A stretch of DNA of 64,000 nt from Macrostomum lignano (taxonomy: Eukaryota). Both the position numbers and the translations under genes were made by a program. Below are positions 1-21,169 of this stretch, in pieces. Position 1 is the stretch's first letter. Each line of letters begins with the position of its first letter. The stretch covers positions 1 through 64,000 of the forward strand of contig NIVC01000892.1 of assembly GCA_002269645.1 (NCBI GenBank), given 5' to 3'. The notes under the pieces are model-generated. The model saw only the letters and a list, made by a program, of their open reading frames with translations. It had not been told where the DNA came from and made no database searches.

Positions 1-2
1 TT

Positions 3-254
3 ATTGGTCATCTTTGGCCAAAATTCGGTTTCTCTAGTCTAAAAAGATATGCAGGCTACTATTCGAATTATCTGGTTGGATACGATGCAGAAAATTTCCC
101 ACAAGCAGTTTCTGTTAGATCAGCATCAAAACCAAGGCTTTTTTGTAACATATTTTTTTCGAAAAAGTTTGTTATTATGGGCGTTCAAAACACTCATGAA
201 TTGAATAATATTCTTAACCATGTCAAGGATTTTTTAATCTCTGTTAATAACTAA
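3..254 (+). CDS. TBP (TATA-binding protein)-like ORF, C-terminal 83 codons, 5'-truncated by the window
   Basis: Frame 3 is open from 3 to TAA 252-254: IGHLWPKFGFSSLKRYAGYYSNYLVGYDAENFPQAVSVRSASKPRLFCNIFFSKKFVIMGVQNTHELNNILNHVKDFLISVNN. By eye it matches the TBP repeat pattern YEPELFPGL..KPK..LLIF.SGK.V.TGAK..EE. Confidence 0.65.
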   Translation: MGHLWPKFGFSSLKRYAGYYSNYLVGYDAENFPQAVSVRSASKPRLFCNIFFSKKFVIMGVQNTHELNNILNHVKDFLISVNN

Positions 255-464
255 ACTTAACAAGTAAACAATTGCTGTCAAATCGCAGTTGCGATGCATT
301 CTTTTACAAACATTTTGTCTTTTTTTTATTTACCAATTGTTTTCTCTAATAGTAAACGTGTCAGCTATACCTATAACTAACCAAATCATCATTTTTCTTA
401 CAGCCGCAAATGACAAACCGGATCATCTATTATATTATGCTCGATACGCTCGTTGTCGAGCTAG

Positions 465-1209
465 GTGCACACAATGCCGCGTGCACAATGCCAAATCTGC
501 AGAAAAAAGTTCAGTAATCAAGCCGAGCTGCATGCTCACTCGCATGGTGCTTGTTTTTCACCGCAACGATTACTGACCGGATCGCTGCAAAACCTGATCG
601 AAAACCCACCAGATGGGTGGTCCATCGCTTTGCGCGAGTCAGCTCATCGTGGTCGGGTAAATTTTGTCGAATTTACTCCCACTCTTGAACAACAAGGCAA
701 CAGCTCTGGCGAGTTACTTCCTGGCGAGTTGATTGCGTCTTTAAGAGAACCAATATTTAAAATATTGGAAAAAATTGGCTCACCCAGTTTATTAATAAGA
801 GTCTGCTTTCACTTGAAAGTGACACTATTTCGACCGAAAACAGCAGCAGACGACAACGATGGCTCGAGCAGCGAAGAGATCATTTCGGTCTATTTTAATA
901 CCAACATTGCGACAATATCATTTGATGAGACGATTGCAAACAGTGACATGCTGTTATCTCCCGAGGCCTACAATGACTGGTTCGCACGCGTTATTAATCA
1001 GTTGTTAATAAAAATTGACAATTTTCAATCTCGAGGTAGTAATTGGCAATATAGAGCAATCGAGCAGCTAGACTTGATGCTCTGCGTTTATCGCAAAAGC
1101 CATGCAAGCACACTGTCAACAAATACGTCCCACGGTGGTGTGGGGGCGGGCGGCGGCAGTGGTGGTGGTGCGGCGGTGGTGGTGTGGTGGTGGCGGCGGT
1201 GGTGGTGGT

Positions 1210-1241
<32 letters not shown>

Positions 1242-1376
1242 GCGGGGGAGTCCGGTCCAGTCCGGTCCGGTCCAGTCCGGTCCGGTCTGGTTAAGCAGCA
1301 ATCGTTTAAAGTTCCAGTCTCAATCGGTCGCAAAGCTGGAGCAGTACTGCTTCTAAAGCCGCACAGAGCAGTTTAA
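465..1376 (+). CDS. Maverick C2H2 zinc-finger / GSxW-domain protein (resembles the pPolB-associated N-terminal region), probably degenerate at its 3' end
   Basis: Finger CQICRKKFSNQAELHAH; motif IDNFQSRGSNWQYRAIEQLDL; GC-rich simple repeat at 1133-1290; an in-frame DNLCF motif lies beyond two stops. The track start is GTG, so the true start is uncertain. Confidence 0.6.
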
Positions 1377-1867
1377 AGCATCAAGACTATTTAAGAGTCT
1401 TACACAAGCGACAACTTGTGTTTTCGCGCATGCAGTCCATTCGTTCTCGAAAACAGAAAGTTTTTTTTGATGCAACAAAGAAAACTTGCACTAAGCTTCT
1501 TCGATACGAAGCGATCCTGGACAAGTTCAATTAATTCGCTACCCTTTGGACACTGGCACTTGGCTAATTAATTAACAATATGCTCTGATCTCTTTTGTTG
1601 TACAAAGTAATAGCATGCTATAGAAGACTGTAACCCATCATTAATTTTTTCATTGATCATTATTTACAATAAATAAATGATACCGGCATTCGTTTAAATT
1701 ATAATTTTAGCACTTTTTTAATTGTGTTTAATTATTTGAAAAAGTATATTTTTTATAGTTAGATTCTCAAGACTAAGCTTGTGTTTGTAGTAGACGTAAA
1801 TGTAGTGCTATCGTTCATGTTTCAAGAAAAAAAACTTTTTTTTAAACTTTCAGCTACAAGAATCGAC

Positions 1868-2350
1868 ATGAATCCCGAGCAGCAGCAGCAACAACAACTA
1901 ACTGATCGTAAGCTTTTAGTTGAACGTCTATACGATTCGGCAACGATTCCGACCCGAAAAACTGTCGGGTCGATCGGGTATGATCTTTGCGCTGGCGTCG
2001 ATGGTACCATTCCGGCCTACGAGTCCCGGAGTGTGCGAACCGGACTCAAAATTCGCTTACCGCCTGGTACCTATGGCAGGATAGCGGGACGTTCCAGCAT
2101 GGCTCTGCACAGCTTATTTGTTGGCGGTGGCGTAATCGACCCCGACTATACTGGTGAAATCTGTATAGTCTTGTTTAATTACAGTCCGGAAGACTTTGAG
2201 TACTATGCCGGGCTCAGTATTGCACAACTGGTTCTGGAGCAGGCCGTGCTTGCTTCAGTCTATGTGACTGAAGCAGACAATTCGATTCGGATGATTGAGC
2301 CGCCGACCAAGCGGCGCGGCTTTGGCGGCTTTGGCAGCACTGGCCAATAA
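1868..2350 (+). CDS. dut: Trimeric dUTPase (viral accessory gene)
   Basis: All five motifs present: GYDL, GRSS, GVIDPDYTGEI, IAQL and RGFGGFGSTG; ATG at 1868. Confidence 0.95.
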   Translation: MNPEQQQQQQLTDRKLLVERLYDSATIPTRKTVGSIGYDLCAGVDGTIPAYESRSVRTGLKIRLPPGTYGRIAGRSSMALHSLFVGGGVIDPDYTGEICIVLFNYSPEDFEYYAGLSIAQLVLEQAVLASVYVTEADNSIRMIEPPTKRRGFGGFGSTGQ

Positions 2351-2444
2351 GTATAATAATAATAATAATAAACTGATTTTTTTCTTTGGTGATTGGTGCA
2401 CTATGCGAGAGCTTTGTAAATACTATAAGCAATTTTAAAAATTT

Positions 2445-2888
2445 ATGCCTAAAATATATGTTGTAAAAATGTCTCCAGCGAAAGATCGAGGTTTTAAAAA
2501 GAAAAAAAAGAGCATTCGTAAAAAGAAGAAATCTATTAGAAAGATTAATAAAAAGCAACAAGGTTATGGTGTCGTAAATTGGTTAATTAATCATTTACCA
2601 TTTGAAGCACATTTACCCGGCGGATATCAGTTTTGTGGTCCAGGTACGCAACTGCAAGCTAGGCTAGCAAAAGGACAACGAGGAATTAATCGGCTTGACA
2701 ATTTGTGCATGCTTCACGACGTGGCCTATGATAAAAATTCTGACGTGCAAGAGAGGTTAAAAGCTGATAAGCTATTAGAATCTGGTGCACGAGAGATTGC
2801 CCACGATCCGTCTACTGGTTGGAAAGAAAAACTAGCTGCGAAGTTGGTTACCAAGGTTATGCAAGTTAAGCAACGCTTTGGTGCTTGA
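2445..2888 (+). CDS. Parvovirus-VP1u-like phospholipase A2 protein with Lys-rich N-terminus
   Basis: Ca-binding loop YQFCGPGT, catalytic HDVAY, downstream AD; N-terminal KKKKKSIRKKKKSIRK. Confidence 0.9.
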   Translation: MPKIYVVKMSPAKDRGFKKKKKSIRKKKKSIRKINKKQQGYGVVNWLINHLPFEAHLPGGYQFCGPGTQLQARLAKGQRGINRLDNLCMLHDVAYDKNSDVQERLKADKLLESGAREIAHDPSTGWKEKLAAKLVTKVMQVKQRFGA

Positions 2889-2890
2889 AA

Positions 2891-3601
2891 ATGCAGCAGC
2901 CATACAATATGCAACTAGCTCACGATTCTACATTTATTATTGCTGGACCTTCAAACTCGGGTAAAACTGAATGGACGTTGCGTTTGTTGACTGAACGAAA
3001 AGAATTATTTGATAAAAAACCGTGCCGTCTTGTTTGGTGCCATGGATCAAGTTTGAAACCAGACGATCAACAACGAATTAGAACATGCTGGCAAAAAAGC
3101 GGTCTTGACCCTATTGTTTTTGTACCCGAATTCACACCACAGATGATTAATCGTTTTTTACCACACGATTTGGTTGTTGTTGACGACTTGCAAAGCGAGA
3201 TTGCTAAGTTGCCAGAATTTACTAGTATGTTTACAAAGCATGCGCATCATATCCCTTTGACTTGTCTGTACCTTTGTCAAGGTCTTTTTAACAAGTCTGA
3301 TCCAGAAGCACGCATGCGAAGTTTATCAGCTAGTTATATTTGTCTAACTCGTAGTGTGCGCGATCGAACCACAGTTGAACATCTCGGTCGACAAATGTAT
3401 CCGCGTAATAGTAGGTTTCTAGTGAATGTGTATGAAGACGCAACAAATAACAAACCTTTTTCATATTTATTCATTGACCTGCGGCAAGTGACACCAGATT
3501 TTTTACGATTGAGAACAGGAATATTTCTGGTGATGAACAAGTTGTCTATACTCGTGAATGTGATGCAAAGTTTGTGTAATATTATTATAAGCAAATTATA
3601 A
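2891..3601 (+). CDS. A32/FtsK-like DNA packaging ATPase
   Basis: Walker A GPSNSGKT, Walker B VVVDDL, plus HH..(L)CQ and RD motifs of Polinton ATPases; probable 1-nt frameshift near 3527. Confidence 0.92.
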   Translation: MQQPYNMQLAHDSTFIIAGPSNSGKTEWTLRLLTERKELFDKKPCRLVWCHGSSLKPDDQQRIRTCWQKSGLDPIVFVPEFTPQMINRFLPHDLVVVDDLQSEIAKLPEFTSMFTKHAHHIPLTCLYLCQGLFNKSDPEARMRSLSASYICLTRSVRDRTTVEHLGRQMYPRNSRFLVNVYEDATNNKPFSYLFIDLRQVTPDFLRLRTGIFLVMNKLSILVNVMQSLCNIIISKL

Positions 3602-3636
3602 ACTGTTGTCAATATTAGTTTGTGTTTTATTTCAAA

Positions 3637-4632
3637 ATGAGTTTTTACGTTTTTTTGCCGTCAAACGATATCAGTTACGAAACCAACTCGCCTAATGAAT
3701 TTCGAGTGCGACTAACTGAACCAATAAATTTATTGAACGGATTCTTCGAGGTTGCACTAGTTGAATTACTGTGCCATGGAGCAATTACGACGCCAAATGC
3801 TCATCGTGAGCGTCGATTTGAAGTTCCATATTTTGCGGACATTGACTCAATAATACGATTAAAGAAAAACTATTGGGGTCGTGTTTGGGCAGAGGCAGAC
3901 TTGGATGCTTACGTTTCCTGGCAACCGTCTGGTACAGATGAAAAATTTGCCTGGCTTTTACGAAATTCAGGCGAAAAAACTATTGGATTAGAACTACCAG
4001 TTACATTTATGGACGCTTTCAAATTTGACTCTTGGAAGAAACTTTCTGGACTTGTCTCGGAAAAATTATCAAAACCTGCCGCTGGTAGTGTACAACCACC
4101 GGATGGTTCATACTTGGATTTGATAAAAAGTCTCGACAATACTCTAGCGCTAGTACCTGAGAACTATTATGTTTTTTATTGTGTTCTATCGCCTGGTGAA
4201 GCTATACGACTTGTTTCGCATGGAGACTATCTTCGAAAAACGGAAGGAGAAGTGTACATCAAAGTACACCAATATTGGTTGAGAAATCGTGTTTGGCGCA
4301 TTAACAAAACCTACTTGGATGCTGTGCTACCTTCTCCGATGCCTAGTAAAACGGTTTACATGTACTGTTACACAGATATAATCGAGTATCAAGCAGTGGG
4401 AAGTACATCAGTACCGTTGCTTCGAGTTGTGGAACTCCAACAAAAGAAAAACGGAGAACTTATACGCGATAGCAGTGCATTGCAAACACCCTACTACATG
4501 TACTTGAAAACAAATCGACAACAAATTCACGAGATTTCGATTCGACTATCGGACCAGCGCGGAAAACCGTTTAATTTTGATCCGGGAGCACACGTTGTTG
4601 TCGTACTGCATTTTAAACATAGGTCGGACTAA
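3637..4632 (+). CDS. Penton / minor capsid protein
   Basis: N-terminus FYVFLPSN..N...FRV.L..PI.L.G.FEVAL.E; C-terminus YTDIIEYQ.VG....PLLRVV...I.I.L.DQ.G.P..F...VV.LHF. Both are typical of Maverick pentons. Confidence 0.85.
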   Translation: MSFYVFLPSNDISYETNSPNEFRVRLTEPINLLNGFFEVALVELLCHGAITTPNAHRERRFEVPYFADIDSIIRLKKNYWGRVWAEADLDAYVSWQPSGTDEKFAWLLRNSGEKTIGLELPVTFMDAFKFDSWKKLSGLVSEKLSKPAAGSVQPPDGSYLDLIKSLDNTLALVPENYYVFYCVLSPGEAIRLVSHGDYLRKTEGEVYIKVHQYWLRNRVWRINKTYLDAVLPSPMPSKTVYMYCYTDIIEYQAVGSTSVPLLRVVELQQKKNGELIRDSSALQTPYYMYLKTNRQQIHEISIRLSDQRGKPFNFDPGAHVVVVLHFKHRSD

Positions 4633-4688
4633 TTTATAAGCAAAGATTAATTGTGTAATAGAAAATTTTGTGAATTTGTTTTTTAAGA

Positions 4689-5117
4689 ATGAGCGAACTA
4701 ACAGAAAAAGGAAAACAAAATGCTCGCTCATTGTGTCAGTGTGCTTTTTTACTACAAATTGTTTATCGGCTAAAGCATCCAAAGCAGAGAAAAAGTTTTT
4801 TACAAACACTTTCAGAGTCGGAGATACGATGTCTAGTAGACTTTCTGTTTAATATTATTAGTGGACGTATTAAAATTAGTAACTGTAACAAAAGACGACT
4901 TGAGAAGCATCGCAGATATATACGCCAGCTTTTGGAACAGAAGACTCCAATTACTGCAAAAAGGAAAATACTTGTCCAACACGGAGGATTTTTACCTTTT
5001 TTGGCTCCAATTATTGCCGCTCTACCTGCTATAAGCACTGCGCTTGGGATAACGTCTGGAGTAGTTGGTACCGCCGCGGGAGCAGCGAATTTAATACGAT
5101 CAATTCAACGAAAGTAG
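4689..5117 (+). CDS. Conserved Maverick core-like protein with adenovirus pX-like GGFLP hydrophobic tail
   Basis: Basic helical body followed by LVQHGGFLPFLAPIIAALPAI, similar to adenovirus pX (GG.LP.LIP.IAAAIGA). Confidence 0.75.
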   Translation: MSELTEKGKQNARSLCQCAFLLQIVYRLKHPKQRKSFLQTLSESEIRCLVDFLFNIISGRIKISNCNKRRLEKHRRYIRQLLEQKTPITAKRKILVQHGGFLPFLAPIIAALPAISTALGITSGVVGTAAGAANLIRSIQRK

Positions 5118-5127
5118 TAGGAATATA

Positions 5128-5817
5128 ATGCGAACTAACGAGAGTAGTAGTTTTCAACGAATGTATTTAGTCCCTGAATCTGTGTATCAATCTGCATGTC
5201 AAGGTGCAGAGCAAGGATCGTCACCAACTGCTGAGACACCTCGAAAAACTGAAGTTTTAGACGCACCGCAAGATGCTCTGGCAAAAAATATGGTGGAAAT
5301 GAGAGACCAAATGGATAACTTGGACAAGGAAATGGAAAAGGAGCCAAATTACACAGCTCAATTGAAACGAAGCAGATTGGAAGACAAACTTTTAAAATTG
5401 CGCAAAGTCTATCGCACTGGAGACGAGGACAATCTGTCACTTGTTCGCAAAGGGACTACTGTAAGAAGTTCATATGCCAGCGAATCAAGGGAAATTCCTA
5501 AAGTTTTTTTACCACGTTTCGAAGCTCTCGCTCAAAACCTATTTTCGGACATGGACAAGAATGCAGAACCAATGCTGGCTAATTTGACTGATGCCGAGAT
5601 ACAAGATCTCATGGAATATGTTGTTCGAGACAGACCGCTTAAGCGACACGAGACTCAACCGCCTAGTGGACTAAAAACATTTTTAGACTTTCTTCGAAAA
5701 CGTGGAATCGCAGCAAACCAAATCGGGCGTCATGTACGAAACGAGCTAATGTCTGCTCCAAAAACTGTTGCAAAGGAGGATCTTAGTCTGTTTGAAAATT
5801 ATCAAACACTGGCTTAA
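5128..5817 (+). CDS. Uncharacterised Maverick protein (helical/coiled-coil)
   Basis: 229-aa uninterrupted ORF filling the gap between viral genes; RMYLVP near the N-terminus; upstream TATAAGC at 5030. Confidence 0.7.
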   Translation: MRTNESSSFQRMYLVPESVYQSACQGAEQGSSPTAETPRKTEVLDAPQDALAKNMVEMRDQMDNLDKEMEKEPNYTAQLKRSRLEDKLLKLRKVYRTGDEDNLSLVRKGTTVRSSYASESREIPKVFLPRFEALAQNLFSDMDKNAEPMLANLTDAEIQDLMEYVVRDRPLKRHETQPPSGLKTFLDFLRKRGIAANQIGRHVRNELMSAPKTVAKEDLSLFENYQTLA

Positions 5818-5918
5818 TTTGTTTTAAATGTTTTAACAAAATTGATTCGAGCACTATAAGCTTTTTAAAAAGGTTAATTTTTTGTTTATGAAAAATATAT
5901 AGTTTAATAAGACAAACC

Positions 5919-6107
5919 ATGTCATCTATCTTCCAAAAACTTTTGATTCGTCTCTGTGAGTTTTTTTGCATAAAATCTGAATGTGTGCCGTTTCTGGGAA
6001 AGGAGCACAACGAGGATACTGACGGAGATTCGATCGAGGCTTCGTTCTTTTGTTGCAACTGTCAAACGACTAGCATCAATCTAACTGATGATGAAGCGAG
6101 TGCGTAA
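5919..6107 (+). CDS. Possible small Cys-rich viral ORF (62 aa) overlapping the integrase start
   Basis: ATG in good context (ACCATG) 64 nt after a TATAAGC; six Cys and an acidic stretch; no recognised homology. Confidence 0.3.
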   Translation: MSSIFQKLLIRLCEFFCIKSECVPFLGKEHNEDTDGDSIEASFFCCNCQTTSINLTDDEASA

Positions 6108-7248
6108 GGAAATTGAAGAATTTTTTACGGATGCTTTTTTTAACTTGAACAAGCCTACTTCATTTAGTGGTAACAAGACTATACTTGTTCGTGAAGTACG
6201 TAAAAAGTTTCCACAGATTACGAACAAAGTTGCAAAGCGCGAAGTTGATAATTGGGTGCGATCAACAAATGAGCATCATTTATTTCGAAAAACACGACGA
6301 AACTTTCCAACTCCAAAAATTAGTGTGCCACCAGTTGCAAAGTTTCAGTTTCAAATCGATTTGGCAGATTTACCTCAATACAAGACGGAAAATCGAGGTT
6401 ATCGTTACATACTTGTTCTTATCGACTGTTTTACTAGAGTTGTACGACTAAGACCATTGCGTACAAAGAAGCCTTCAGAAGTTAGTCAAGTATTACTAGA
6501 GATTTTTCGAAGTGGTTTTAAGCCTGTTTATTTACAAGGTGATGCTGGTATGGAGTTTCTCGGAAGAGCTACACGTCAAATGCTGAAACAGGAAGGAGTT
6601 CGATTTTTTGTTAGCCAAAGCAATTACAAGGCAAGCATGGCTGAACGATTTATCCGCTCGTTAAAGGAACGTCTATTACGATACTTTCGAGCAAAAAATT
6701 TACCTCGATGGTTTGACATTTTACCGCAATTGGAAGATAATTTCAACTCTAGTCCTCATCGATCCTTGAGTGGAGAAACACCAAAACGGGTAGAGACAGA
6801 CCCGCATTTACAAGGAATTTTGTGGGACAAAATGTTTGCGAAGTCGTACACTAAAAAGAATGAGAATAAATTTAAAGTTGGTGATTGGGTTAGAATTACA
6901 CGACGTCGAGGAACATTTGAAAAAGGATACACTACGACTTGGAGTAATTCAAAATATCGCATTCATCGTGTACACTTGACAGACCCGCCAATGTACGAAT
7001 TAGTGGACCCTGAAGATGGATTTGAAGTGCTGAAAGGAAGGTTTAACCAAGCGGAACTAATGTTGGTAAACGAGACAGATGAAACACCTAATGAAATTGA
7101 AAAAGTTATTGAAACTGATCGAGCGAAAAATGGAAGTCGTCTGTATCTAGTAAAATGGAAAGGTATGCCAATCTCAAGAAGTCAGTGGTTAAACGAAAAT
7201 GATCTTGACGCAAAGACTGCTAAACTATTTTCTAAAGTGTATAAGTAA
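6088..7248 (+). CDS. Retroviral-like DDE integrase with C-terminal chromodomain
   Basis: Catalytic triad in FQIDLADL, LQGDAGMEF and MAERFIRSLK; chromodomain EIEKVIE...YLVKWKG.....QWL.E.DL; ORF intact. Confidence 0.95.
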   Translation: MMKRVRKEIEEFFTDAFFNLNKPTSFSGNKTILVREVRKKFPQITNKVAKREVDNWVRSTNEHHLFRKTRRNFPTPKISVPPVAKFQFQIDLADLPQYKTENRGYRYILVLIDCFTRVVRLRPLRTKKPSEVSQVLLEIFRSGFKPVYLQGDAGMEFLGRATRQMLKQEGVRFFVSQSNYKASMAERFIRSLKERLLRYFRAKNLPRWFDILPQLEDNFNSSPHRSLSGETPKRVETDPHLQGILWDKMFAKSYTKKNENKFKVGDWVRITRRRGTFEKGYTTTWSNSKYRIHRVHLTDPPMYELVDPEDGFEVLKGRFNQAELMLVNETDETPNEIEKVIETDRAKNGSRLYLVKWKGMPISRSQWLNENDLDAKTAKLFSKVYK

Positions 7249-7289
7249 CACATGAATTGGGATTGCATGACGATGAGAAGACTGTTGAA

Positions 7290-7748
7290 ATGGATCCTAT
7301 TTTTGCTTTTTATTCTGGTCCGAATAGATCTGCTGAAGGTGGAGGTGGATCTGGCATTCCTGTTTACGAAGGTTACGGTTTTTTGTCAAATTTGGCGGAC
7401 AGATTGGTGTATCCTGTACTACGCAACGCAAAGAAAGATTTCTTGGATCGTGGTCTGGAGTATTTGAAAAGTGCGACAGCAAAAATTGGTATGGGTCGGA
7501 AGCGTCACTTGGACACAGAATCGAGCGAAGAGATGTTTAATACAACTGCAGTTTCGAGACCAAAGCGAAGGAAAAGAACCAGTGGAGTGGCTATAAGCTT
7601 AGGAAAGAAGAAACGGCAAAAGAAACGACGAACAAGACAGTGTGGAAAGGGACGCGTGAACAAAAGAAAACGCAAGAAGACCGGTGGTATAGGAAAACGT
7701 CGAACTGCTACTGCAAGCAAGAAACTTTTTAGTCTGTTTGAAAAGTAG
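7290..7748 (+). CDS. Basic core protein (adenovirus pVII-like precursor)
   Basis: Gly-rich GxG motifs (EGGGGSG, YEGYGFL), then an amphipathic helix and a very Lys/Arg-rich C-terminal half; immediately precedes the MCP. Confidence 0.7.
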   Translation: MDPIFAFYSGPNRSAEGGGGSGIPVYEGYGFLSNLADRLVYPVLRNAKKDFLDRGLEYLKSATAKIGMGRKRHLDTESSEEMFNTTAVSRPKRRKRTSGVAISLGKKKRQKKRRTRQCGKGRVNKRKRKKTGGIGKRRTATASKKLFSLFEK

Positions 7749-7749
7749 C

Positions 7750-9072
7750 ATGAACCATTTGCTTGGACCTGATATTGCTGCTCTTAAAAGTGAATTGTCG
7801 CTATTTGATCAAAGTCCTGTTCAGTTTAGTGTTTTGGATAATCGATATACTAACATTCAACCGCAACATGGTATTACAAAAGGATCACCTATCGAATTTG
7901 AAGTTGTGCCTGCAGGCGATTTGTATTTGGATCTACAAGAAACTGTGCTCACGGTATGCTTCAGCGTTAGTGATAGTGAAGGTGAACCTATAGATGCAAC
8001 GAAAAATTTTGTTTGTTTGAATAATTTGGTTATTGGAACATTGTTTGAGGACGTTCAATTTACTATTGGCGATACTGTAGTTGAAGGTGGTAGTTTTATG
8101 TATCCATACAAGGCTATGCTTCTTACATTACTGGAATATGGACATACAGCTCAGAAGGCTGGTTTACTGCCGTGGGGGTTTTACAAGGATACAGCTGGTA
8201 AAATGAATGCAACAAGTGAAAACGATGGACGAACAAAGAGGCAGGCGCTCATTGCTAACAATAGGCGGTGCACTGTATCGGGGCCGTTATTCTTGGATTT
8301 GTTTCGTCAGCCTCGGTATCTACTATCAAAGACACCACTACGGATCAAGCTCATACCGGCAAAAAGTAAATTTGTCCTGAGCGGGTCAACATTAGAAGCT
8401 GGTGCGGTTTTAAAAGACTATGAGATCAAGTTTTTGCGTGCAGAACTACGATTGCGGTTTGTTCAACCCTCGCCGAGTGTTATCAGTGCACATGCTCATG
8501 GACTTAAAAGTCACAATGCATTATATCCGCACCGAAGTCTAAGCCTTGGTACGTTTACTATACCCCGAGGATCGTCTAGCCATACGCATGAAAATTTGTT
8601 TCCTAGTGGGGTACCACGGCTTTTATTGATGGCAATCGTAAGCAACAAGGCATTCAATGGAAGCATGGACACAAATCCGTTCAACTTTGAGCATGCAAAT
8701 GTGAGCAGCATTGGTGTGTTTGTGAATGGAGACTCGGTACCATCGCGTCCGCTGCAGACAAACTTTGGAGATGATTGTGTGACAGAGTATAATTTTTTGC
8801 TACAACAGCTTGGAATCTATCTACAGGGACGAGATATTGGATTTAATATGCTGGATTACGCCAATGGTTACTCAATTTTTGCATTCAGTCTTGGAAGTGA
8901 ACCTGGTGTCGGACGGGGAGTGCAACTGTATAAGGAAGGAAATGTAAAACTAGAGTTACGCTTCAATGCTGCAACTAGTACCGTGTACAACGTCATATTT
9001 GGAGGTATATTTGACAAGCAACTGCAACTGACTGAACTTCGCGACATTGTTCCTGGCACAGTATGGAAGTAA
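7750..9072 (+). CDS. Major capsid protein (hexon-like, Polinton PY)
   Basis: KSELSLF..SPVQ..V......I.P......PIEF.V....DLYLDL..T.L motif; SGPLFLDLF.Q..YL; NPFNF; G...L...F at the C-terminus; 440-aa intact ORF. Confidence 0.92.
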   Translation: MNHLLGPDIAALKSELSLFDQSPVQFSVLDNRYTNIQPQHGITKGSPIEFEVVPAGDLYLDLQETVLTVCFSVSDSEGEPIDATKNFVCLNNLVIGTLFEDVQFTIGDTVVEGGSFMYPYKAMLLTLLEYGHTAQKAGLLPWGFYKDTAGKMNATSENDGRTKRQALIANNRRCTVSGPLFLDLFRQPRYLLSKTPLRIKLIPAKSKFVLSGSTLEAGAVLKDYEIKFLRAELRLRFVQPSPSVISAHAHGLKSHNALYPHRSLSLGTFTIPRGSSSHTHENLFPSGVPRLLLMAIVSNKAFNGSMDTNPFNFEHANVSSIGVFVNGDSVPSRPLQTNFGDDCVTEYNFLLQQLGIYLQGRDIGFNMLDYANGYSIFAFSLGSEPGVGRGVQLYKEGNVKLELRFNAATSTVYNVIFGGIFDKQLQLTELRDIVPGTVWK

Positions 9073-9626
9073 TTGATTCTATCCTAGATCGTGGTGTAAC
9101 AGATCGCTTCCTTCGCAATGTTGTATCGAAATTGTGCGCACATTTTTTAAATGTTGTATTTCTTGGTGTTTTTCCTCAAAACTTTGTTGGTGGACTTAGA
9201 CGCTTACCTTTAGACGGTAAAGACTATTTTTTTATCGTTAATACTGACGTCTCCAACCTGCCCGGAAAACATTGGGTATGCGTTTGGGTTTATGGTCATC
9301 GAGCAGGTCGCGGTAGCAAACGACTTGGTGAATATTTTGATTCTCTTGGTCTAGTACCATTGCCAAGAATAGCAAAATGGCTAGGAAAAGAATGTGGAAA
9401 TTCGAAAAATTGGTGTTATAGTCGCTTTGCTATCCAAGACCCACAGAGTGGAAGTTGTGGATTTTGGGTAATTTTTTATATTTTTCATAAGTTGACTACC
9501 AGAGGAAACCTAGAGTGTTTTATTCGAAGCGTTTTTAAACGGAATATAATTCGCACTGGTTCGTTTCGATACTTGTATGCTAAATTACGCAATTTTGTTT
9601 TACGAGTGCTGCCTCAATATTTGTAA
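9063..9626 (+). CDS. Adenain-like cysteine protease
   Basis: NTD....PGKHW (His), YFDSLG (Asp), IQDPQSGSCG (Gln/Cys); overlaps the MCP stop. Confidence 0.93.
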   Translation: MEVIDSILDRGVTDRFLRNVVSKLCAHFLNVVFLGVFPQNFVGGLRRLPLDGKDYFFIVNTDVSNLPGKHWVCVWVYGHRAGRGSKRLGEYFDSLGLVPLPRIAKWLGKECGNSKNWCYSRFAIQDPQSGSCGFWVIFYIFHKLTTRGNLECFIRSVFKRNIIRTGSFRYLYAKLRNFVLRVLPQYL

Positions 9627-10227
9627 ACTCGCTAATTTGTGCGTCAAATTGTGTTTGTATCTAGTTGAAATATACAATACTGCTTGAAAAGAAGAATTTA
9701 AATGCGTTAAGTTATACGCGAAATAAGCTTTGTGTCAAATTGAATTTTGGTTGGGCTTGTAATTAGCTGCATTCATTGCGGATAGAATTTAGGTGGATAG
9801 ACAGGTGTTTGCGTAAAAGTGATTCAGCTAATTGGTTAATTCATTGCGTAAAAGCTAGTTTGCGTGCACGGCAAATTTCAGACTCTGCCATTTTTTTGGG
9901 CCTGTACTTACTATGTATTTCGCCATAAGGAAATCGGCTTTGTGTCAAAAAAACGTATACTACTTCAACCGACGATTATTTATCGATGTCGGAAAAGTTA
10001 ATTCGAATAAACCTGACAGCACTATACCACTTCGACAGTAGATTAAGGGCTTAATTATCATGAAGGCAGCAGACCTGCAGGACCAGATGCAGTACACATT
10101 TGCAAGAGGCACAGGTTGCAACATGGGGAATACATCCTCTGTTTATTAGCCTGATCAGAATAGAGGGCTGATTCATCACGAAGCTTGGTCTTGGATACAA
10201 GGACTGCTTGAAAAGTACTTAATCGAT

Positions 10228-12229: not shown

Positions 12230-13789
12230 ATGTCCGAGAACGTGCGCCAATTTGTCAGCAAGCTAGTTAGCGCCGAAGCTCTAGATAGTGCCAAAGATTT
12301 TTGCCTCGCCAATGGTAAAAGCCTGGCTGCAGCCACTGGAGCCGCGGTGGCGCTGCTGTACGCGGCCAGAGCTTACTATCGGGTTTATAGACTGCCACCA
12401 GGACCTCTGGGCTTGCCTATTCTTGGCAGGTTGCCCTGGCTCGACCTGAAACACTTGGAAGAGAGTCAGGAGAAGATGCGACATCAATACGGTGGTATCT
12501 ATTCGTACCGAATGGGCAGCCGCCTGATGATAGTTGTGTCCTCCTATGAGCTGCTCAAAGAGATGCTCAGCGAAGACGTCTTTTCTGGCAGGCAGTTGCC
12601 CCCAGCCGCTCAGCGGACGGCTCAAGATTGCGGAATACTCTTTGTCGAAGGTCGAGTCTGGTCTGAGCAACGAAGAGTGTCTCTACGGGTCCTGAGAGAC
12701 TTTGGCTTTGCTCGCACGGAATCTGTGGAGTTTATCAATGAAGAGATTTGCATCCTGATGGAAAAACTGGAGCAGCAACCGACTGAGGTCAAGGTGATCG
12801 ACCATTTTAATGCCCTGACTAACAGCGTCATTGCTATGCTCGTGTTCGGTAGGCGCTACGCCAACGAGGACAAAAGATACGAAAAATTCTTAGAGAATTC
12901 AAAGTTTCTCTTCGACGTAGGACTACTGAGTGAACTGCCGTTTCTCTTTCCCTACCTGTCCAAGTTGCTCAGTCTTTTGCCAATGACTAGAAAAATCGTT
13001 AAAACTGTCCAAGACATTCAAACGTTTATCGAGGAAGAGATTACTAAGCGAGAGGCTCTGATCTCTAGCGATGCTGATGCCGAAGGAACTTGCCTGTGCG
13101 ATGCCTACATTATAGAGCGCCGGAATGCTGAAGCCAAGGGTGACTTTGAGACGTTCAAAAAATTCCAGCTAGTCAGGGTTAGCATGGAACTGTTCGTTGC
13201 TGGCACCGATACCACGGCAAAGACGCTGGAGTGGCTCATGATCCACATGGCCGCGTTCCCGGAGGCGCAGGACAATGTCCAGGCGGAGATTCACCAAGTT
13301 GCTGGAACGGAGAGGCAGCCGCAGCTGTCGGACAAAGCGCAGCTGCACTACACGCAGGCTGTCATCGATGAGAGCATGCGGTTCGCATCTCTGGCTCCAA
13401 ATGCGATATCTCACAGAGCTATAAAAGACACGTACTTCCGAGGCTATCTCATTCCGGCCGACGCAGCCATTGTGCCATTCCTGTACGGACTGCATCGAAA
13501 CTCGAAGTACTGGAAGCGACCGCATACGTTTTATCCGGGTCACTTCCTGACCGAGGACGGCCGCTACGCTCCATCAAAGATGTTGGAACCGTTCTGCGTC
13601 GGCAAGCGGGCCTGTCCGGGCGAGAGTTTGGCCAAGTTGGAGATTTTCCTCACCTTCACGGCCATCATGCAGCGCTATCGGGTGAGATTCTCGCGCGACT
13701 ACGAGACTAAAGTGGACGATATTCTGCGCGGAGTGTGCGGCCTGGCCCGCGACGCGGGGGAGAACCGGCTGGACTTTGTGCGACTCTGA
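12230..13789 (+). CDS. Cytochrome P450, CYP2 clan, single coding exon
   Basis: PPGP hinge, I-helix AGTDTT, ExxR (ESMR), heme motif FCVGKRACPG; 519 aa intact. Confidence 0.95.
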   Translation: MSENVRQFVSKLVSAEALDSAKDFCLANGKSLAAATGAAVALLYAARAYYRVYRLPPGPLGLPILGRLPWLDLKHLEESQEKMRHQYGGIYSYRMGSRLMIVVSSYELLKEMLSEDVFSGRQLPPAAQRTAQDCGILFVEGRVWSEQRRVSLRVLRDFGFARTESVEFINEEICILMEKLEQQPTEVKVIDHFNALTNSVIAMLVFGRRYANEDKRYEKFLENSKFLFDVGLLSELPFLFPYLSKLLSLLPMTRKIVKTVQDIQTFIEEEITKREALISSDADAEGTCLCDAYIIERRNAEAKGDFETFKKFQLVRVSMELFVAGTDTTAKTLEWLMIHMAAFPEAQDNVQAEIHQVAGTERQPQLSDKAQLHYTQAVIDESMRFASLAPNAISHRAIKDTYFRGYLIPADAAIVPFLYGLHRNSKYWKRPHTFYPGHFLTEDGRYAPSKMLEPFCVGKRACPGESLAKLEIFLTFTAIMQRYRVRFSRDYETKVDDILRGVCGLARDAGENRLDFVRL

Positions 13790-14684: not shown

Positions 14685-17600
14685 TTAAACTCGTTTCAAA
14701 TGCGCCCTCAATATATAGGCGGCAACCAAGGCGCTGTTGACACTGCCGAGAAAGCCAAACGACCAGACGCCGAGATTGTCCAACATTAGGCCGCCTAGCG
14801 TTGGCGAAGCGATGCGAATAACGCTATTGATTGACATGTTGATGCCCAGTACAGAGCCTGCGGATTTTGATGGATGCAAGCTATGATTTGTACGGGCGAA
14901 TTGCACTCAAATTTGTGCTATTACAACGATTTTCAAAGTACATTAGCGTCTACTCTCATTCTTGGGTCCTATAGTGACGAGTGACCCTCAGAGAGTGCCT
15001 CATCAGAGAGGCTTACAGAGCGTGTTCTTGGGCGATTCTCAGTGATTTACTGACGACTCTCAAGGTGTGTTCTGAAGCCATTCCTAATGATTTACTGACG
15101 ACTCTCAAGGTGTGTTCTTGGGTGATTCTCAGTGATTTACTGACGACTCTCAAGGTGTGTTCTGAAGCCATTCCTAATGATTTACTGACGACTCTCAAGG
15201 TGTGTTATTGGGTGATTCTCAGTGATTTACTGACGACTCTCAAGGTGTGTTCTGAAGCCATTCCTAATGATTTACTGACGACTCTCAAGGTGTGCTCTGG
15301 GGCGATTCTCAGTGATTTAATGACGAATCTCAAAGTGTGTTCTGAAGCGATTCCTAATGATTTACTGACGACTCTCAAGGTGTGTTCTTGGGCGATTCTC
15401 AGTGATTTACTGACGACTCTCAAGGTGTGTTCTGAAGCGATTCCTAATGATTTACTGACAACTCTCAAGGTGTGTTCTGGAGCGATTCTCTGTGATTTAC
15501 TGACGAATCTCAAGGTGTGTTCTGAAGCGATTCCTAATGATTTACTGACGACTCTCAAGGTGTGTTCTGAAGCGATTCCTAATGATCTACTGACGACTCT
15601 AAAGGTGTGTTCTGGGGCGATTCTCAGTGATTTACTGACCACTTTTAAGGTGTGTTCTGAAGCGATTCCTAATGATCTACTGACGACTCTCAAGGTGTGT
15701 TCTGGGGCGATACTCAGTGATTTACTGACAGCTTGCTTTCACGCTGAGTTCAAGGGTGTTACTTTATGTCTGCAGAATATTTAGTATATTACTCTTATTA
15801 ATGGAATGTACCGCCTTTTTGAAACGGTAATAAAATTTTCGATTCTAAGTAGATAAATCACGACTTGATTACTTACCGGTATCCTCCAGCGACACAGCAT
15901 TGGTGAGCGCACTGCTTACCAGCACATTGATAAGTGTCAGGCCGATAACCAGAGGCAGAATGCACACGAATAAGTAGTAGATCTGGGTGCCAAGAAACGC
16001 CTGTAAAAGTGAGTTCACAGCATTAAGGAAAATAGCTGGAAAAGATGTGTATGCAAAAAAGATGTGTATCACGATCTATATAATTCAATGGTCAAAGCAC
16101 TTGCCAACATGAAATATCCCACTGTGAGAATGGCACAACCGACAGTCAGTAACAGGCTGTCGCTAAATCGTTTAGTCAGCACAGAGATGCCAAGACCTTG
16201 CACAGCCATTGACACTACAGCAACGTACGCCATCATAATTCCGCTAATCTGAGGCGTAGCGCCCAGCTGTTTGACAGAAATGATTGGCATCATGCTCTGC
16301 AGTAGGCCAATAGGAATTCCTGTGACAACTTTCACCGCCAGCAGCCAACGAGTTCGTCGATTCTTCACTAGGAACTCGGAGAATTTCGCCAAGTCGAATA
16401 CCTTAGCGCCTGATGAAGACGATTTGAAGCCAGCCTCATTGGCGTCATCTGCCGAGGAGGAGGCTGTTGAAGACTTTGACATAACAGGGGAAGCCTTCAG
16501 ATTAGCGGGGATGGTTAGCCAAACGGCTGACATGCTACCGAATGAGAGAACAGCCGCGATGAAGCAGGCGTAATGCTCACTGTTGAGAGGAGAGGTCGGA
16601 GAGAGGTGAACAAGTGTGTAGAGGTTTGGGCAATGTTTAACGACTCTCAATGTAGCTTAGGAGTGATTCTCGATTTTTTTACTAAAAGACTGTCAACGTG
16701 ATTCAGAAACCAGTGGCAATTTGTTTATTAAACGACTCTCAATGTGGTCTAGGAGCGAGTCTCGGGTGCTTAATGAACCACTCTCAGTGTGATCTAGGAG
16801 TGAGTCTCGGGTGCTTAATGAACCACTCTCAGTGTGATCTAGGAGTGAGTCTCGGGTGCTTAATGAACCACTCTCAGTGTGATCTAGGAGTGAGTCTCGG
16901 GTGCTTAATGAACCACTCTCAATGTGGTCTAGGAGTGAGTCTCGGGTGCTTAATGAACCACTCTCAATGTGGTCTAGGAGCGAGTCTCGGGTGCTTAATG
17001 AACCACTCTCAATGTGGTCTAGGAGTGAGTCTCGGGTGCTTAATGAACCACTCTCAGTGTGATCTAGGAGTGAGTCTCGGGTGCTTAATGAACCACTCTC
17101 AATGTGGTCTAGGAGTGAGTCTCGGGTGCTTAATGAACCACTCTCAGTGTGATCTAGGAGTGAGTCTCGGGTGCTTAATGAACCACTCTCAATGTGGTCT
17201 AGGAGCGAGTCTCGGGTGCTTAATGAACCACTCTCAGTGTGATCTAGGAGTGAGTCTCGGGTGTTTAATGAACCACTCTCAATGTGGTCTAGGAGCGAGT
17301 CTCGGGTGCTTAATGAACCACTCTCAGTGTGATCTAGGAGTGAGTCTCGGGTGTTTAATGAACCACTCTCAATGTGGTCTAGGAGTGAGTCTCGGGTGCT
17401 TAATGAACCACTCTCAATGTGGTCTAGGAGTGAGTCTCGGGTGCTTAATGAACCACTCTCAATGTGGTCTAGGAGTGAGTCTCGGGTGCTTAATGAACCA
17501 CTCTCAATGTGGTCTAGGAGTGAGTCTCGGGTGCTTAATAAACCACTCTCAATGTGGTCTAGGAGCGAGTCTCGGGTGCTTAATAAACCACTCTCAATGT

Positions 17601-19922
17601 GGTCTAGGAGTGAGTCTCGGGTGCTTAAAATGAACCACTCTCAATGTGGTCTAGGAGCGAGTCTCGGGTGCTTAATGAACCACTCTCAATGTGGTCTAGG
17701 AGCGAGTCTCGGGTGCTTAATGAACCACTCTCAATGTGGTCTAGGAGCGAGTCTCGGGTGCCTAATGAACCACTCTCGGTGTGGTCTAGGAGCGAGTCTC
17801 GGGTGCTTAATGAACGACTCTCAACTCTCAATGTAAGTCCAGGAGAGAGTCTCTCGAGCAATGAATGCATTGGCGCCTCGTTGGTTGTGATATAGTTAAA
17901 GAACTCATTGGGCAAAGGTTTAATAACTTTTCATACAATGCACTACACAAACCTGGTCGCCTTGATAATGAAACCACTGGATAGGGAGCCGAGCACCATG
18001 CCGACACCGTAGGAGATGCCGAGCTTGGCTAGACTATCCGATCGTTTTAACGGGTCTGATAGGTCCGTCACCACCATCTGACCGCCTGAAACACAAAAAA
18101 TAAGAATGCAGCTTTAGTACGTTCCGGTACTGTGGTACCTAATTAAACCAGAGTTTTCGTAGAGTTACTAGTACAGTATTTAATCGGACAACTACCATAG
18201 TTAATAACACTTAAAGTTTTTATGGTATTTCATTAAAAGACTAATATCATTCAGTAATTACTTTGACAACTATTATCTGGGTGGATGTTTCATAGCGCCC
18301 CTGTCACAGTTACAATTGTGACAACCGAGTAGTGATAATTGTTTATTCAAAAGCGGTTGGTTTCATAAGACATCACTTTATTGGAAGTGAAAAGCACTTG
18401 ATTCTAGACAAGCTTCAGGACAATTCAGGACAAGTAGCCCCAAGAAATTTTTCAGCAATTCCCTGGGGGTTGACTGTGACTGCGCCAGCGAGGCACCCGT
18501 TGCTTTGGCCATAGACATTCTAAGTCACTACTAAAGCTTGTAACTTGCCATTAGATTTAAAAATCAGTTTATGCAACTAAACTTCGCAGAACTTGGTAAA
18601 TTTGCTAACTTGTCGCTTGCATAGATCTTATATTCTCTTGATAGACCACTTTGTATGGCGGTAATAGGGAAAGTGCAACCGCTGTTTTTCGTCACTTGTG
18701 CGAAAAAAGCCGACATGGGTTGCTTAAATTTTGAGTTCAGTAGCTTAAGGGACATAGACGCTACTTTTGAGAATTGAATAAAACTTCGCGTGAATTAATC
18801 AAACAGCTACTCAATTGAACTAAGAATGATGAATTCACTGCAGAGACTACTGACGAAATTGAGTTCAGTAGTTGATTTTCGCGCTGTCGCGAGATGCAAT
18901 TTTTTTACATTAGCTTCTATGGTCACATAAGCGGTTAATGATTGGCCCATCTTGTGTATATATGATCGCTTGTCATTATTAACCTGTAACTTATAACTAT
19001 GAAACACCAACTCTCATAGAATTTCAGGTCACTAAGGCTAGTTCAGAGACATAGACAAAAAGAGCAAGAAAACTAGACTTAATGTTTGAAATTGCGGGGA
19101 CTGTGAGAGTTGCATCATGGTCTATATGTATCATAGACTATGCTAATAAGTGCATGTCTATAATTCACAAGGCTTGTAGAAACTCAATTAAGACAAACTT
19201 CCTATCTTTTCAATTGCGCCCCAGATTAACGGTATTTTGGTTTTCTTCTAGTATGGAAGGTCTAGCACAGGGTTCTCTTAGCACGGGTTTTTTTTCCAAG
19301 TTCAATCGGTTAGGAACATTCAGTCATTGTTTATTGACAGTTAGGCTCTGACTAAACTAAGACGAACACCATTACGTCTACATCAGTTTTATGAATTGAC
19401 GTTTTGCTTGTTTGAATAAAAAGGGGATTTTGTTCAAAATCGGAGGTAAACAGCTGTGTAGTGATTTGGCATTGAACTACACGGATACCACGTGGATAGA
19501 CATAGTGCATGCAGATACATTAGCTACAAACTGGTTACTAACACTGATACCTAAACAACACCCAATTTTTTACCCTGCATCGCGTGCACCAACATTAGCG
19601 GCAGCCGGGACAAAAACATCCAAAACAAGCCGTCAGTTAGGGCCACAGTCAGGCACGATATTCCTGAGGCGCCAAACGCCAGACAGAGCGCCAATCTGGC
19701 GCCATACAAATCGCCAAATCGGCCAAACAGCGGCCCGCCAAGCAGTTGAACAGCGGCAAACATCGTCTGCAAGTAGCCAAATGCCAGATTTGAAGCCTCC
19801 CACTTCTGTAATAGAAACGGCACAGCGGCCTGTTGGATCCAGAAAGCCAGCGAGTATAGCGCTATGTTGGCGTGCGTGCTCAGCATAATTGCACTGGGTG
19901 ACAACTGTCCCTTGCCAGCCAT
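14685..19922 (-). CDS. SLC22A18: SLC22A18-like MFS transporter, 5 exons: 19922-19574, 18085-17953, 16579-16105, 16000-15877, 14857-14685 (417 aa)
   Basis: Splice phases join into one 1254-nt ORF; motifs GGPLFGRFGDLYG, QMVVTDLS and NAVSLEDTGSVLG match the SLC22A18 family; intron 3 is GC-AG. Confidence 0.88.
15025..15728. repeat. 45-bp minisatellite with alternating A/B variants (SLC22A18 intron 4)
   Basis: GATTTACTGACGACTCTCAAGG recurs every 45 nt (15044, 15089, ...). Confidence 0.95.
16727..17825. repeat. 45-bp minisatellite (SLC22A18 intron 2), about 24 copies
   Basis: Unit TAATGAACCACTCTCAATGTGGTCTAGGAGTGAGTCTCGGGTGCT. Confidence 0.95.
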
Positions 19923-20739
19923 TATTTGGTCGGATTAATTGATGACTTGTTAATTCACTCCTCCAGCAACAATTCAGTCAGCTAGGCTCTGTAAGTAAAC
20001 GTAATAAACCTTTATTTAATCGAGTAAATTCAGTTATTTGCTTATGTCATAGTGGCAGGTAATTTTCAGATCGAAAGCGATAAGGCTACAAAAAGAATTA
20101 AAATTCACACAGCCTACTGAACTTTCCTTAGAATTAACTTTATTAAAATTTATGCTAACTTAATTATCTTTATTATAAGATCGGACAGCCTTGACTTGTC
20201 AATTAATGAACAAGCTAAAGCATTTAATGGAGCCTTTGTAGCAGTCAATGTGGCGGAAGTGAGCTAGCATTTTGTGTATATTCTGTGGTATCGTATCGAT
20301 TACTGTGTAGCTCTATAGTTACAAATATATGAAACAACAATATATCCAATAATAAATCAAACACTTTGAAATATACTGATGTAGAAGGCATGGAATATAA
20401 TAATATCAATCGAAGGCCTAAAGGTTTATGACAGATCAGAAAGCGTTTGGGGTAAAAAGTAAAAAGTCAACTTAAATGACAGATCACAATAATAATTACA
20501 TGAAACGGCAAAAGTTTCGCGTGAATTCAGATTCCTATTTTACAAGCGTATGATCTTGAACAGCAGTATAAATCGAAAGACCATCGCAAATTGAGCTACT
20601 TGGTAAAAAATCGAGTATAGCTAGTAGAGTCTAGCAAAATTACACATGGAATATGTACACATTTCAGTAAAAAAAGCTGACTTAAATTTAACTTGATTCT
20701 TCTACTTGGCGAATTTCCCTAAATTTATAGAGGCTTTAT

Positions 20740-21023
20740 GTAGCCTGTGGTGGAGCTTCGGACTCAAGCCTGCAAGGTCAAGGTTCGATTCCCGATCCCA
20801 CTCGGAATAATTTGTGTTCTTGACCATGACACTTCACTCTGCACTGCTTCAGTTCACCCAACTGTAAAATGGGTGCCAGCATTAGCTGGGGTAATTGAGG
20901 GTGTGTGTGGCGACCCCCCCCCACCAGTCCTTGGACTGAACAGCCGTACGGAGCCTTCAGATGCGCCGCGCAATAGCTGCGGCTGAGCTGTCGGTTGCAC
21001 ATCTGCCCGTAGGGCAGGTGTGA
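20740..21023 (+). mobile_element. tRNA-derived SINE, family 1, second copy
   Basis: B box GGTTCGATTCC and body nearly identical to 10228-10546. Confidence 0.85.
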
Positions 21024-21169
21024 CAACGAAAAAAGAATCAATTATTTTATTAAACAATGTAGAGTCAATCGATATACAAAATGTTTAACAAAATTAGTGC
21101 TAACACACTTAGGATTAGGTGACGAAAGTGTCAACTTATCACGCATAACTGGATATTGTGTCATGCAGC

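Follow-up and report, generated by a model that had tools for sequence, protein, structure and literature searches.

Candidate pairing of TBP-like genes with variant TATA boxes in Maverick elements of Macrostomum lignano

The window analysed here (64,000 nucleotides of Macrostomum lignano DNA; contig NIVC01000892.1 of assembly GCA_002269645.1, positions 1 to 64,000 of the forward strand) begins with the right part of a Maverick/Polinton element, bases 1-9964, whose left end lies beyond the contig. This element carries part of a gene for a protein resembling the TATA-binding protein (TBP), and a variant TATA box, TATA(A/T)G(C/T), stands before genes of its capsid block. The pairing of the two, which the initial annotation had proposed, holds up, with corrections: four Maverick families of the genome each have their own TBP-like gene and their own box and a fifth has neither, which adds support to the pairing. 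In the reading favoured here (probability roughly 0.6), the TBP paralogue of each element would bind the box of its family and direct host RNA polymerase II (Pol II) to late promoters of the capsid block. That the protein switches on virion genes had likewise been suggested at the outset; gene and box do go together across families, but the step in which the protein reads the box is one that we infer.

The variant box and its conservation

The motif scan covered positions 1-10000 of the window, with gene starts fixed by homology. TATAAG occurs there at eight sites on the + strand and one on the - strand, and the + strand positions listed earlier, with six of the eight reading TATAAGC, proved exact. 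All eight lie within 250 nt upstream of the start of an open reading frame (ORF), in windows that make up 30% of the block, and TATAAG ranks 1 of 3043 hexamers for upstream position, so that the proximity to ORF starts noticed at first is borne out. A scan against shuffled controls, one of the checks then proposed, also finds upstream enrichment (0/1000 dinucleotide-shuffled sets of upstream windows reach 8; mean 0.77). The count itself had been thought to be about what base composition predicts; it is instead in about fourfold excess (8 against 2.1 expected, Poisson P 0.0015).

The element belongs to a family, here called A, of which five subfamilies were compared (that of the window and four others; capsid 65-80% identical). 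The four others place 28/29 sites upstream, with hexamer ranks of 1, 2, 1 and 3, and over all five 34/37 sites lie within 170 nt upstream; pooled binomial values overstate the significance, as related subfamilies are counted as independent. Across the subfamilies the box reads TATA(A/T)G(C/T), the profile over 29 conserved sites being TATA(A/T)G(C/T)(A/T)A, and TATATGC takes the place of TATAAGC at homologous sites in the loci L051, L052 and L055. The eight sites of the window, with their conservation among the subfamilies, are:

2424..2430, + strand: box TATAAGC before the PLA2 gene; 5/5, counting TATATGC
3586..3592, + strand: box before the penton-like gene; 5/5
4635..4641, + strand: box before the pX-like gene; 5/5
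5030..5036, + strand: TATAAGC inside the pX coding sequence; 1/5, likely incidental
5855..5861, + strand: box before small ORF 5919, which starts 41-64 nt behind it across the subfamilies; 5/5, counting TATATGC
7240..7246, + strand: box TATAAGT overlapping the integrase stop, before the core gene; 4/5
7592..7598, + strand: box ahead of the major capsid gene, within the core coding sequence; 5/5
8929..8935, + strand: TATAAGG in capsid codons Y-K-E; 3/5, synonymous loss in the other 2; likely a coding by-product

Of the eight boxes first proposed, six are thus conserved (those before PLA2, penton, pX, small ORF 5919, core and capsid), whereas the sites at 5030 and 8929 appear incidental, because the former is private to the family of the window and the latter tracks capsid codons. 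The site at 5855 had been offered to both ORF 5919 and the integrase; it goes with the small ORF in all five subfamilies and not with the integrase. The capsid box, at 123-168 nt within the core ORF, has different neighbouring residues in each of the five subfamilies, and this points to constraint at the DNA level; the flanks of the intergenic boxes differ between subfamilies as well. No conserved box precedes the ATPase, as had been stated, and the dUTPase, described as box-less, is so in the window copy but has a box upstream in L051, L055 and L058.

Box-to-ATG distances below 100 nt fall without exception (53/53, three families) at 33-88 nt, with a median of 49, and this spacing fits a -30 element. 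Since the starts were chosen by the analysts (2469 and not 2445 for PLA2 in the window), the spacing is supporting and not independent evidence. The PLA2 start had initially been placed 21 nt from its box; 2469, at 45 nt, is the likelier one, being the first Met of the frame in the copy L032. The distance from box to previous stop spans -168 to +273.

The TBP-like gene, its protein and its splicing

The ORF first described as TBP-like is the second half of a longer frame:

3..254, + strand: TBP-like exon, second half; first half cut off by the contig start

The full frame has 185 codons in 26/31 near-identical copies. Its assignment stands: the Pfam TBP family (PF00352) matches at E 2e-7 (31 bits, cut-off 22.9), the predicted structure has a mean predicted local distance difference test score (pLDDT) of 95.9, the top 38 matches listed in a PDB structure search are all TBP (template modelling score, TM, up to 0.74), and HHalign to host TBP gives 98%. 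Profile, model and structure matches thus agree on the two-repeat saddle fold of the TBP family. The TBP-like genes are under purifying selection, the ratio of nonsynonymous to synonymous rates (dN/dS) being 0.07 (B1/B2), 0.17 (A2a/A2b) and 0.20 (C1/C2) in three informative within-family pairs and about 0.2-0.3 in saturated ones.

The Maverick proteins are bare TBP cores of 157-199 aa, 18-29% identical to host TBP. The stirrup glutamate (E122 of the host core) is invariant in 13/13 alignment rows and the acidic residue before it is kept, so that the acidic C-terminal stirrup, the TFIIB contact of the TBP family, is present. The family A protein retains both C-lobe Phe. The C-lobe of TBP contacts the 5' TA step, and this would match a box kept at TATA and altered in its 3' half.

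In families A and B the TBP-like frame does not begin with an ATG. In 6/6 family A and 2/2 family B loci it follows, in phase 0, a pyrimidine tract and AG, and a phase-0 GT donor sits at the same place of the upstream ORF in each of these. Missing ATG, phase-0 acceptor and matching donor together predict fusion by alternative splicing, with the TBP-like exon as the spliced last exon of the upstream gene in both families. RNA-like contigs from 4 runs were used, none of whose listed holders is on record as RNA. In 3/4 runs, from three studies, they contain a 71-nt GT..AG intron in the upstream gene (L091:846-1912 and copies of the window family), before the TBP exon, which indicates transcription and splicing of this gene; in none of the 4 runs do the contigs contain a joint onto the TBP acceptor. 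Over window positions 1300-9800 these contigs gave no joints and no usable ends, hence no start sites. The idea that a leader is trans-spliced onto the TBP acceptor was weighed and dropped: no loose end occurs there in the 4 runs, and the conserved cis donor explains the missing ATG better.

Family A has two promoter classes. A canonical TATA lies 418-494 nt before exon 2 of the left-arm (TBP-carrying) gene in 6/6 loci, and the variant box, which precedes capsid-block genes, is found in the left arm of just 1/6. The front domain that the left-arm gene would contribute to a fusion (O284) has no Pfam match, no usable Atlas match and 0 PDB matches, and its model reaches a pLDDT of 35; a role in single-strand binding is a guess. 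A weak database search (4 matches) found no protein joining the front domain to the family A TBP exon.

Some further features of the neighbourhood of this gene may be recorded. Families C and D have a PC4-like gene in place of the A/B-type gene upstream of TBP. In other family A subfamilies a deoxynucleoside kinase lies right behind the TBP-like gene (L038:200-901, L045:950-1546, L094), in one of them within the same open frame; the family of the window has no kinase.

Other Maverick families and the reading of the box

A capsid search led to a distant family B (30-32% identical), whose TBP-like exon is 19-20% identical to that of family A. Its box, TATAAATA, stands before the pX, small ORF, penton, core and capsid genes, with TATAAAT upstream at 14/14 sites. 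Neither the family B loci (L073-L088) nor four further upstream stretches showed a PolB. A Pfam search of the genome, in which 150 of 330 candidate TBP-like loci were scored, returned, besides an intact host TBP and a paralogue of TRF type, many TBP-like loci present in multiple copies; the loci fetched from among these belong to families C and D, in both of which the TBP ORF stands alone and has its own ATG. The family C box is (C)TTAAGAA, with 22/24 sites upstream, and family D has ATAAGAA before 5/10 genes, a figure that 0/200 shuffles reach. A table of family by box is near-diagonal. Family E is abundant and has capsid, ATPase and PolB. Among 1801 frames in 17 of its loci there is no TBP-like frame (best E 0.13) and in these elements no TATA-like box was found, the best words being A/T runs beside the ATG (matched by 5/200 shuffles for the 6-mer and 15/200 for the 7-mer). 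The co-occurrence of TBP-like gene and box, a check suggested with the original observation, is thus seen across families, A-D having both and E (17 loci) neither.

Annotated proteins of the flatworm Macrostomum lignano include some that are nearly identical to those of a related family. The C860 group, at one point taken for a new TBP family, is really a family C copy in a degraded state, next to an element of family E. As separate observations, the family C TBP-like gene itself has a family-type box upstream, a possible feedback loop; families C and D have an ORF that overlaps their TBP-like gene (L128:8305-9382, L151:1106-2194); and a Fic-domain gene occurs in one family B subfamily. Outside this genome, a single-sequence search and scans of viral and metagenome contigs found no relatives, and a search with representatives turned up 4 proteins resembling family A, encoded on short contigs, along with 2 repeat artefacts.

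A mechanism can be sketched from these observations, though only conditionally. Host TBP would first transcribe the left-arm gene from its canonical TATA; an alternative phase-0 splice would then join the front part of this gene to the TBP exon, and the fusion product would bind the variant box, some 30 nt upstream of the start site. The retained acidic stirrup of the product could engage host TFIIB, Pol II would be recruited, and the capsid-block genes would be switched on late, with the box-less ATPase, ORF5128, integrase and protease presumably read from the transcript of the upstream neighbour. Having lost its polymerase, the family of the window would depend on intact relatives for replication. 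A more far-reaching version is put forward only tentatively, as rather less than an even bet: a one-protein late switch, in which the captured TBP of each family diverged together with its own TATA variant to give orthogonal codes in one nucleus, plugged into host TFIIB and Pol II, and with the TBP domain alternatively spliced onto a second domain in two families. If true, this would (i) amount to a minimal system that parallels the late complex of herpesviruses but is independent of it, (ii) be evidence that animal Mavericks have a regulated cycle producing virions, (iii) offer four natural TBP/box pairs in one host as a set for studying how TBP specificity changes and (iv) provide pairs that could serve as orthogonal core promoters. 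Maverick gene control and a timed virion programme in animals both become testable with a named factor and a target of 7-8 bases.

Several observations weigh against the favoured reading. The family B box is a perfect canonical TATA, the same as the box before the early gene of family A, so that host TBP could read it, and it often overlaps AATAAA; many boxes lie 15 nt or less from the stop of the upstream gene. Four families and one negative are few and related, and the co-occurrence may reflect shared ancestry; since trees built from 14 TBP rows and 10 ATPase rows are long-branched and largely lack resolution, no claim of origin or co-evolution is drawn. RNA-like contigs cross the TBP acceptor unspliced in 3/4 runs, and one very close pair, with few changes, has a dN/dS of 0.5. 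TBP-bound DNA has two kinks with two Phe each, as described in a part of PMC10005294. Of the four intercalating Phe and two Asn typical of the TBP family, the family A protein is without both Asn and one N-lobe Phe, and its other N-lobe Phe is replaced by Tyr; with its DNA-contact residues eroded in this way, it may not bind DNA as TBP does.

The main alternative is that the boxes are ordinary, partly weak TATA elements read by host TBP/TFIID or the TRF paralogue, while the element protein has another job (either sequestering TFIIB or other host factors as a decoy, or binding the ends of the genome). The canonical box of family B, the intact TBP and TRF-like paralogue of the host and the eroded contacts of the family A protein all agree with it, as does the statement, in the portion of PMC10005294 at hand, that promoters with 1-2 mismatches to TATAWAWR are common, the family A box having 2. 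This account is nevertheless judged unlikely: it leaves without explanation four different fixed boxes in one nucleus, the uniform family C box CTTAAGAA with its 3 mismatches, the canonical TATA of the left-arm gene in the same elements and the absence of a box in the TBP-less family E. It is also possible to place sequence specificity in another element protein, for instance the left-arm front domain, with the TBP fold as a scaffold; the TBP exon of A and B is predicted to be fused to just such a domain without assigned identity, and herpesvirus ORF24 contacts DNA with an extra domain (PMC12529657, seen in part). Families C and D, however, have a stand-alone TBP-like ORF and still their own boxes, and this is the least probable of the alternatives.

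The motif could instead serve the upstream gene as a 3'-end or termination signal, given that the sites for penton, pX and core and most of those for the small ORF lie at -15 to +38 of the upstream stop and that family B sites often contain AATAAA. The distance to the next ATG is tight, however, while that to the previous stop ranges over the -168 to +273 given above, the capsid box lies well inside the core ORF, and none of the A, C and D boxes is a poly(A) signal; the probability left to this view is low. Slightly less is given to the view that the boxes are late promoters of initiator type, used by the RNA polymerase of a large DNA virus during co-infection, in the manner of virophages that use helper promoters. 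The late promoter core of baculoviruses is TAAG, and (A/T)TAAG is found in the A, C and D boxes. The link to baculoviruses made in the initial annotation is nevertheless weak, because the TAAG is not invariant (TATATGC replaces TATAAGC in L051, L052 and L055) and is missing from family B. Moreover, none of the 53 box-to-ATG distances is below 33 nt, introns of spliceosomal type point to Pol II, and a TBP gene of the element's own would have no explanation. Both a 3'-end signal and a helper-virus promoter therefore fit worse than binding of the box by the element TBP.

Among published systems, known here from parts of the cited texts, the viral TBP (vTBP)/TATT system of beta- and gamma-herpesviruses offers a close parallel (ORF24 of KSHV, Kaposi's sarcoma-associated herpesvirus; BcRF1 of Epstein-Barr virus, EBV; UL87 of human cytomegalovirus, HCMV). 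There, too, a TBP-fold protein is encoded without an RNA polymerase of the virus's own (PMC6541308, PMC12529657), structural genes share a variant TATA box and other genes have a canonical one; for KSHV ORF24 it is TATTWAA, about 30 bp before late starts (PMC6541308). ORF24, however, belongs to a six-protein viral complex, binds Pol II itself and is without the TFIIB-binding acidic residues (PMC12529657), whereas these residues are kept in the Maverick protein, which consists of a bare TBP core, and the boxes differ by family. No large ORF24-type protein or six-protein complex of the kind that forms the viral pre-initiation complex was found, and none of 12 window ORFs matches a herpesvirus family in Pfam. 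The best reading is that the Maverick system may work like vTBP/TATT but is unrelated in make-up.

With cellular TBP and TRF the element proteins share the two-lobed saddle fold, the stirrup glutamate and the C-lobe Phe, and differ in Phe and Asn contacts that are partly replaced and in the predicted spliced last exon of A and B. Nucleocytoviricota, which mostly have their own polymerase, also encode viral TBP-fold proteins (of the African swine fever virus, ASFV, B263R type and phycodna-like); these viruses have large genomes with TFIIB and late factors, whereas the Maverick has the TBP fold alone. CpV-BQ1 has TBP and TFIIB and no RNA polymerase (10.1101/2025.01.22.633263, in the part available). 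No RNA polymerase family was found by Pfam among the 12 window ORFs or 17 further ORFs of relatives, bar a chance-level RPO7 match inside PolB.

The integrase and the terminal inverted repeats are shared with Mavericks, Polintons and adintoviruses (10.1101/697771, PMC8097293), and the PolB remnant and the putative ATPase, protease and capsid-like genes would correspond to theirs. Vertebrate Mavericks are reported there as intron-less, whereas one intron or more is observed in the element described here. In figure legends for MELD viruses, within a non-animal section, Starrett et al. mark genes as 'TBP' (10.1101/697771); in the portions covered of that text and PMC8097293, no promoter motif or TBP function is described for Mavericks, and those of PMC8097293, 10.1101/2023.08.22.554363 and 10.1101/2024.03.25.586562 do not mention TATA. 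A literature search, with subscription journals and bioRxiv supplements outside its range, found no published link of a Polinton TBP-like gene to a promoter motif.

The element, its gene block and its surroundings

The assignment to Mavericks/Polintons follows from an rve integrase (PF00665) above the Pfam cut-off and from a 104-bp terminal inverted repeat. Pfam matches among the window ORFs comprise the integrase with chromodomain, PLA2, pX (E 2e-6), dUTPase and, weakly, the adenain protease (E 0.038); the capsid and A32 ATPase have none, and capsid-block labels come from context.

474..1376, + strand: N-terminal remnant of protein-primed PolB (pPolB); about 3.1 kb of PolB missing; no box upstream
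1868..2350, + strand: dUTPase; no box in the window copy
2469..2888, + strand: PLA2-domain gene; another in-frame ATG at 2445
2891..3601, + strand: ATPase of packaging type, assigned from its P-loop and gene context; no conserved box
3637..4632, + strand: penton/minor capsid-like gene; label from the initial annotation and context, no Pfam match
4689..5117, + strand: adenovirus pX-like gene (Pfam)
5128..5817, + strand: conserved ORF5128, no assigned function; no conserved box
5919..6107, + strand: small conserved Cys-rich ORF 5919, 62 aa; conserved in 5/5 subfamilies
6088..7248, + strand: rve integrase with chromodomain (Pfam)
7290..7748, + strand: basic core-like gene; label from the initial annotation, no Pfam match
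7750..9072, + strand: major capsid-like gene, by context and conservation; no Pfam match
9063..9626, + strand: adenain-like cysteine protease; weak Pfam match
9861..9964, no strand: terminal inverted repeat of the right end; 104 bp, 96% match to the left ends of the sister copies L031 and L033

The ORF at 474..1376 had been taken for a box-less, non-structural C2H2 gene. It is instead what remains of pPolB: alignment of the window with L032 shows a 3.1-kb gap at 1370, and L032 and L045 have PolB frames (PF03175) behind the same zinc finger. The short spacing from TBP to capsid in 21/23 pairable copies indicates that the family of the window is mostly polymerase-deleted. A GGN/CCGGT repeat tract (window 1130-1290) adjoins the start point of the deletion, and the family A pPolB contains an endonuclease VII-type domain (L032:1062-4469, L045:1629-6062). 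In subfamily A4 the PLA2 gene is split by a GT..AG intron-like insert of about 77 nt (L055:2140-2216). The small Cys-rich ORF before the integrase is kept in families A and B (window:5919-6107; L073:6604, L081:6708), with a Met-Gly motif at its start in B. The host flank holds an intron-less cytochrome P450 ORF (window 12230-13789) and, on the - strand, MFS transporter exons and an F-box/LRR ORF (window 16069-22996).

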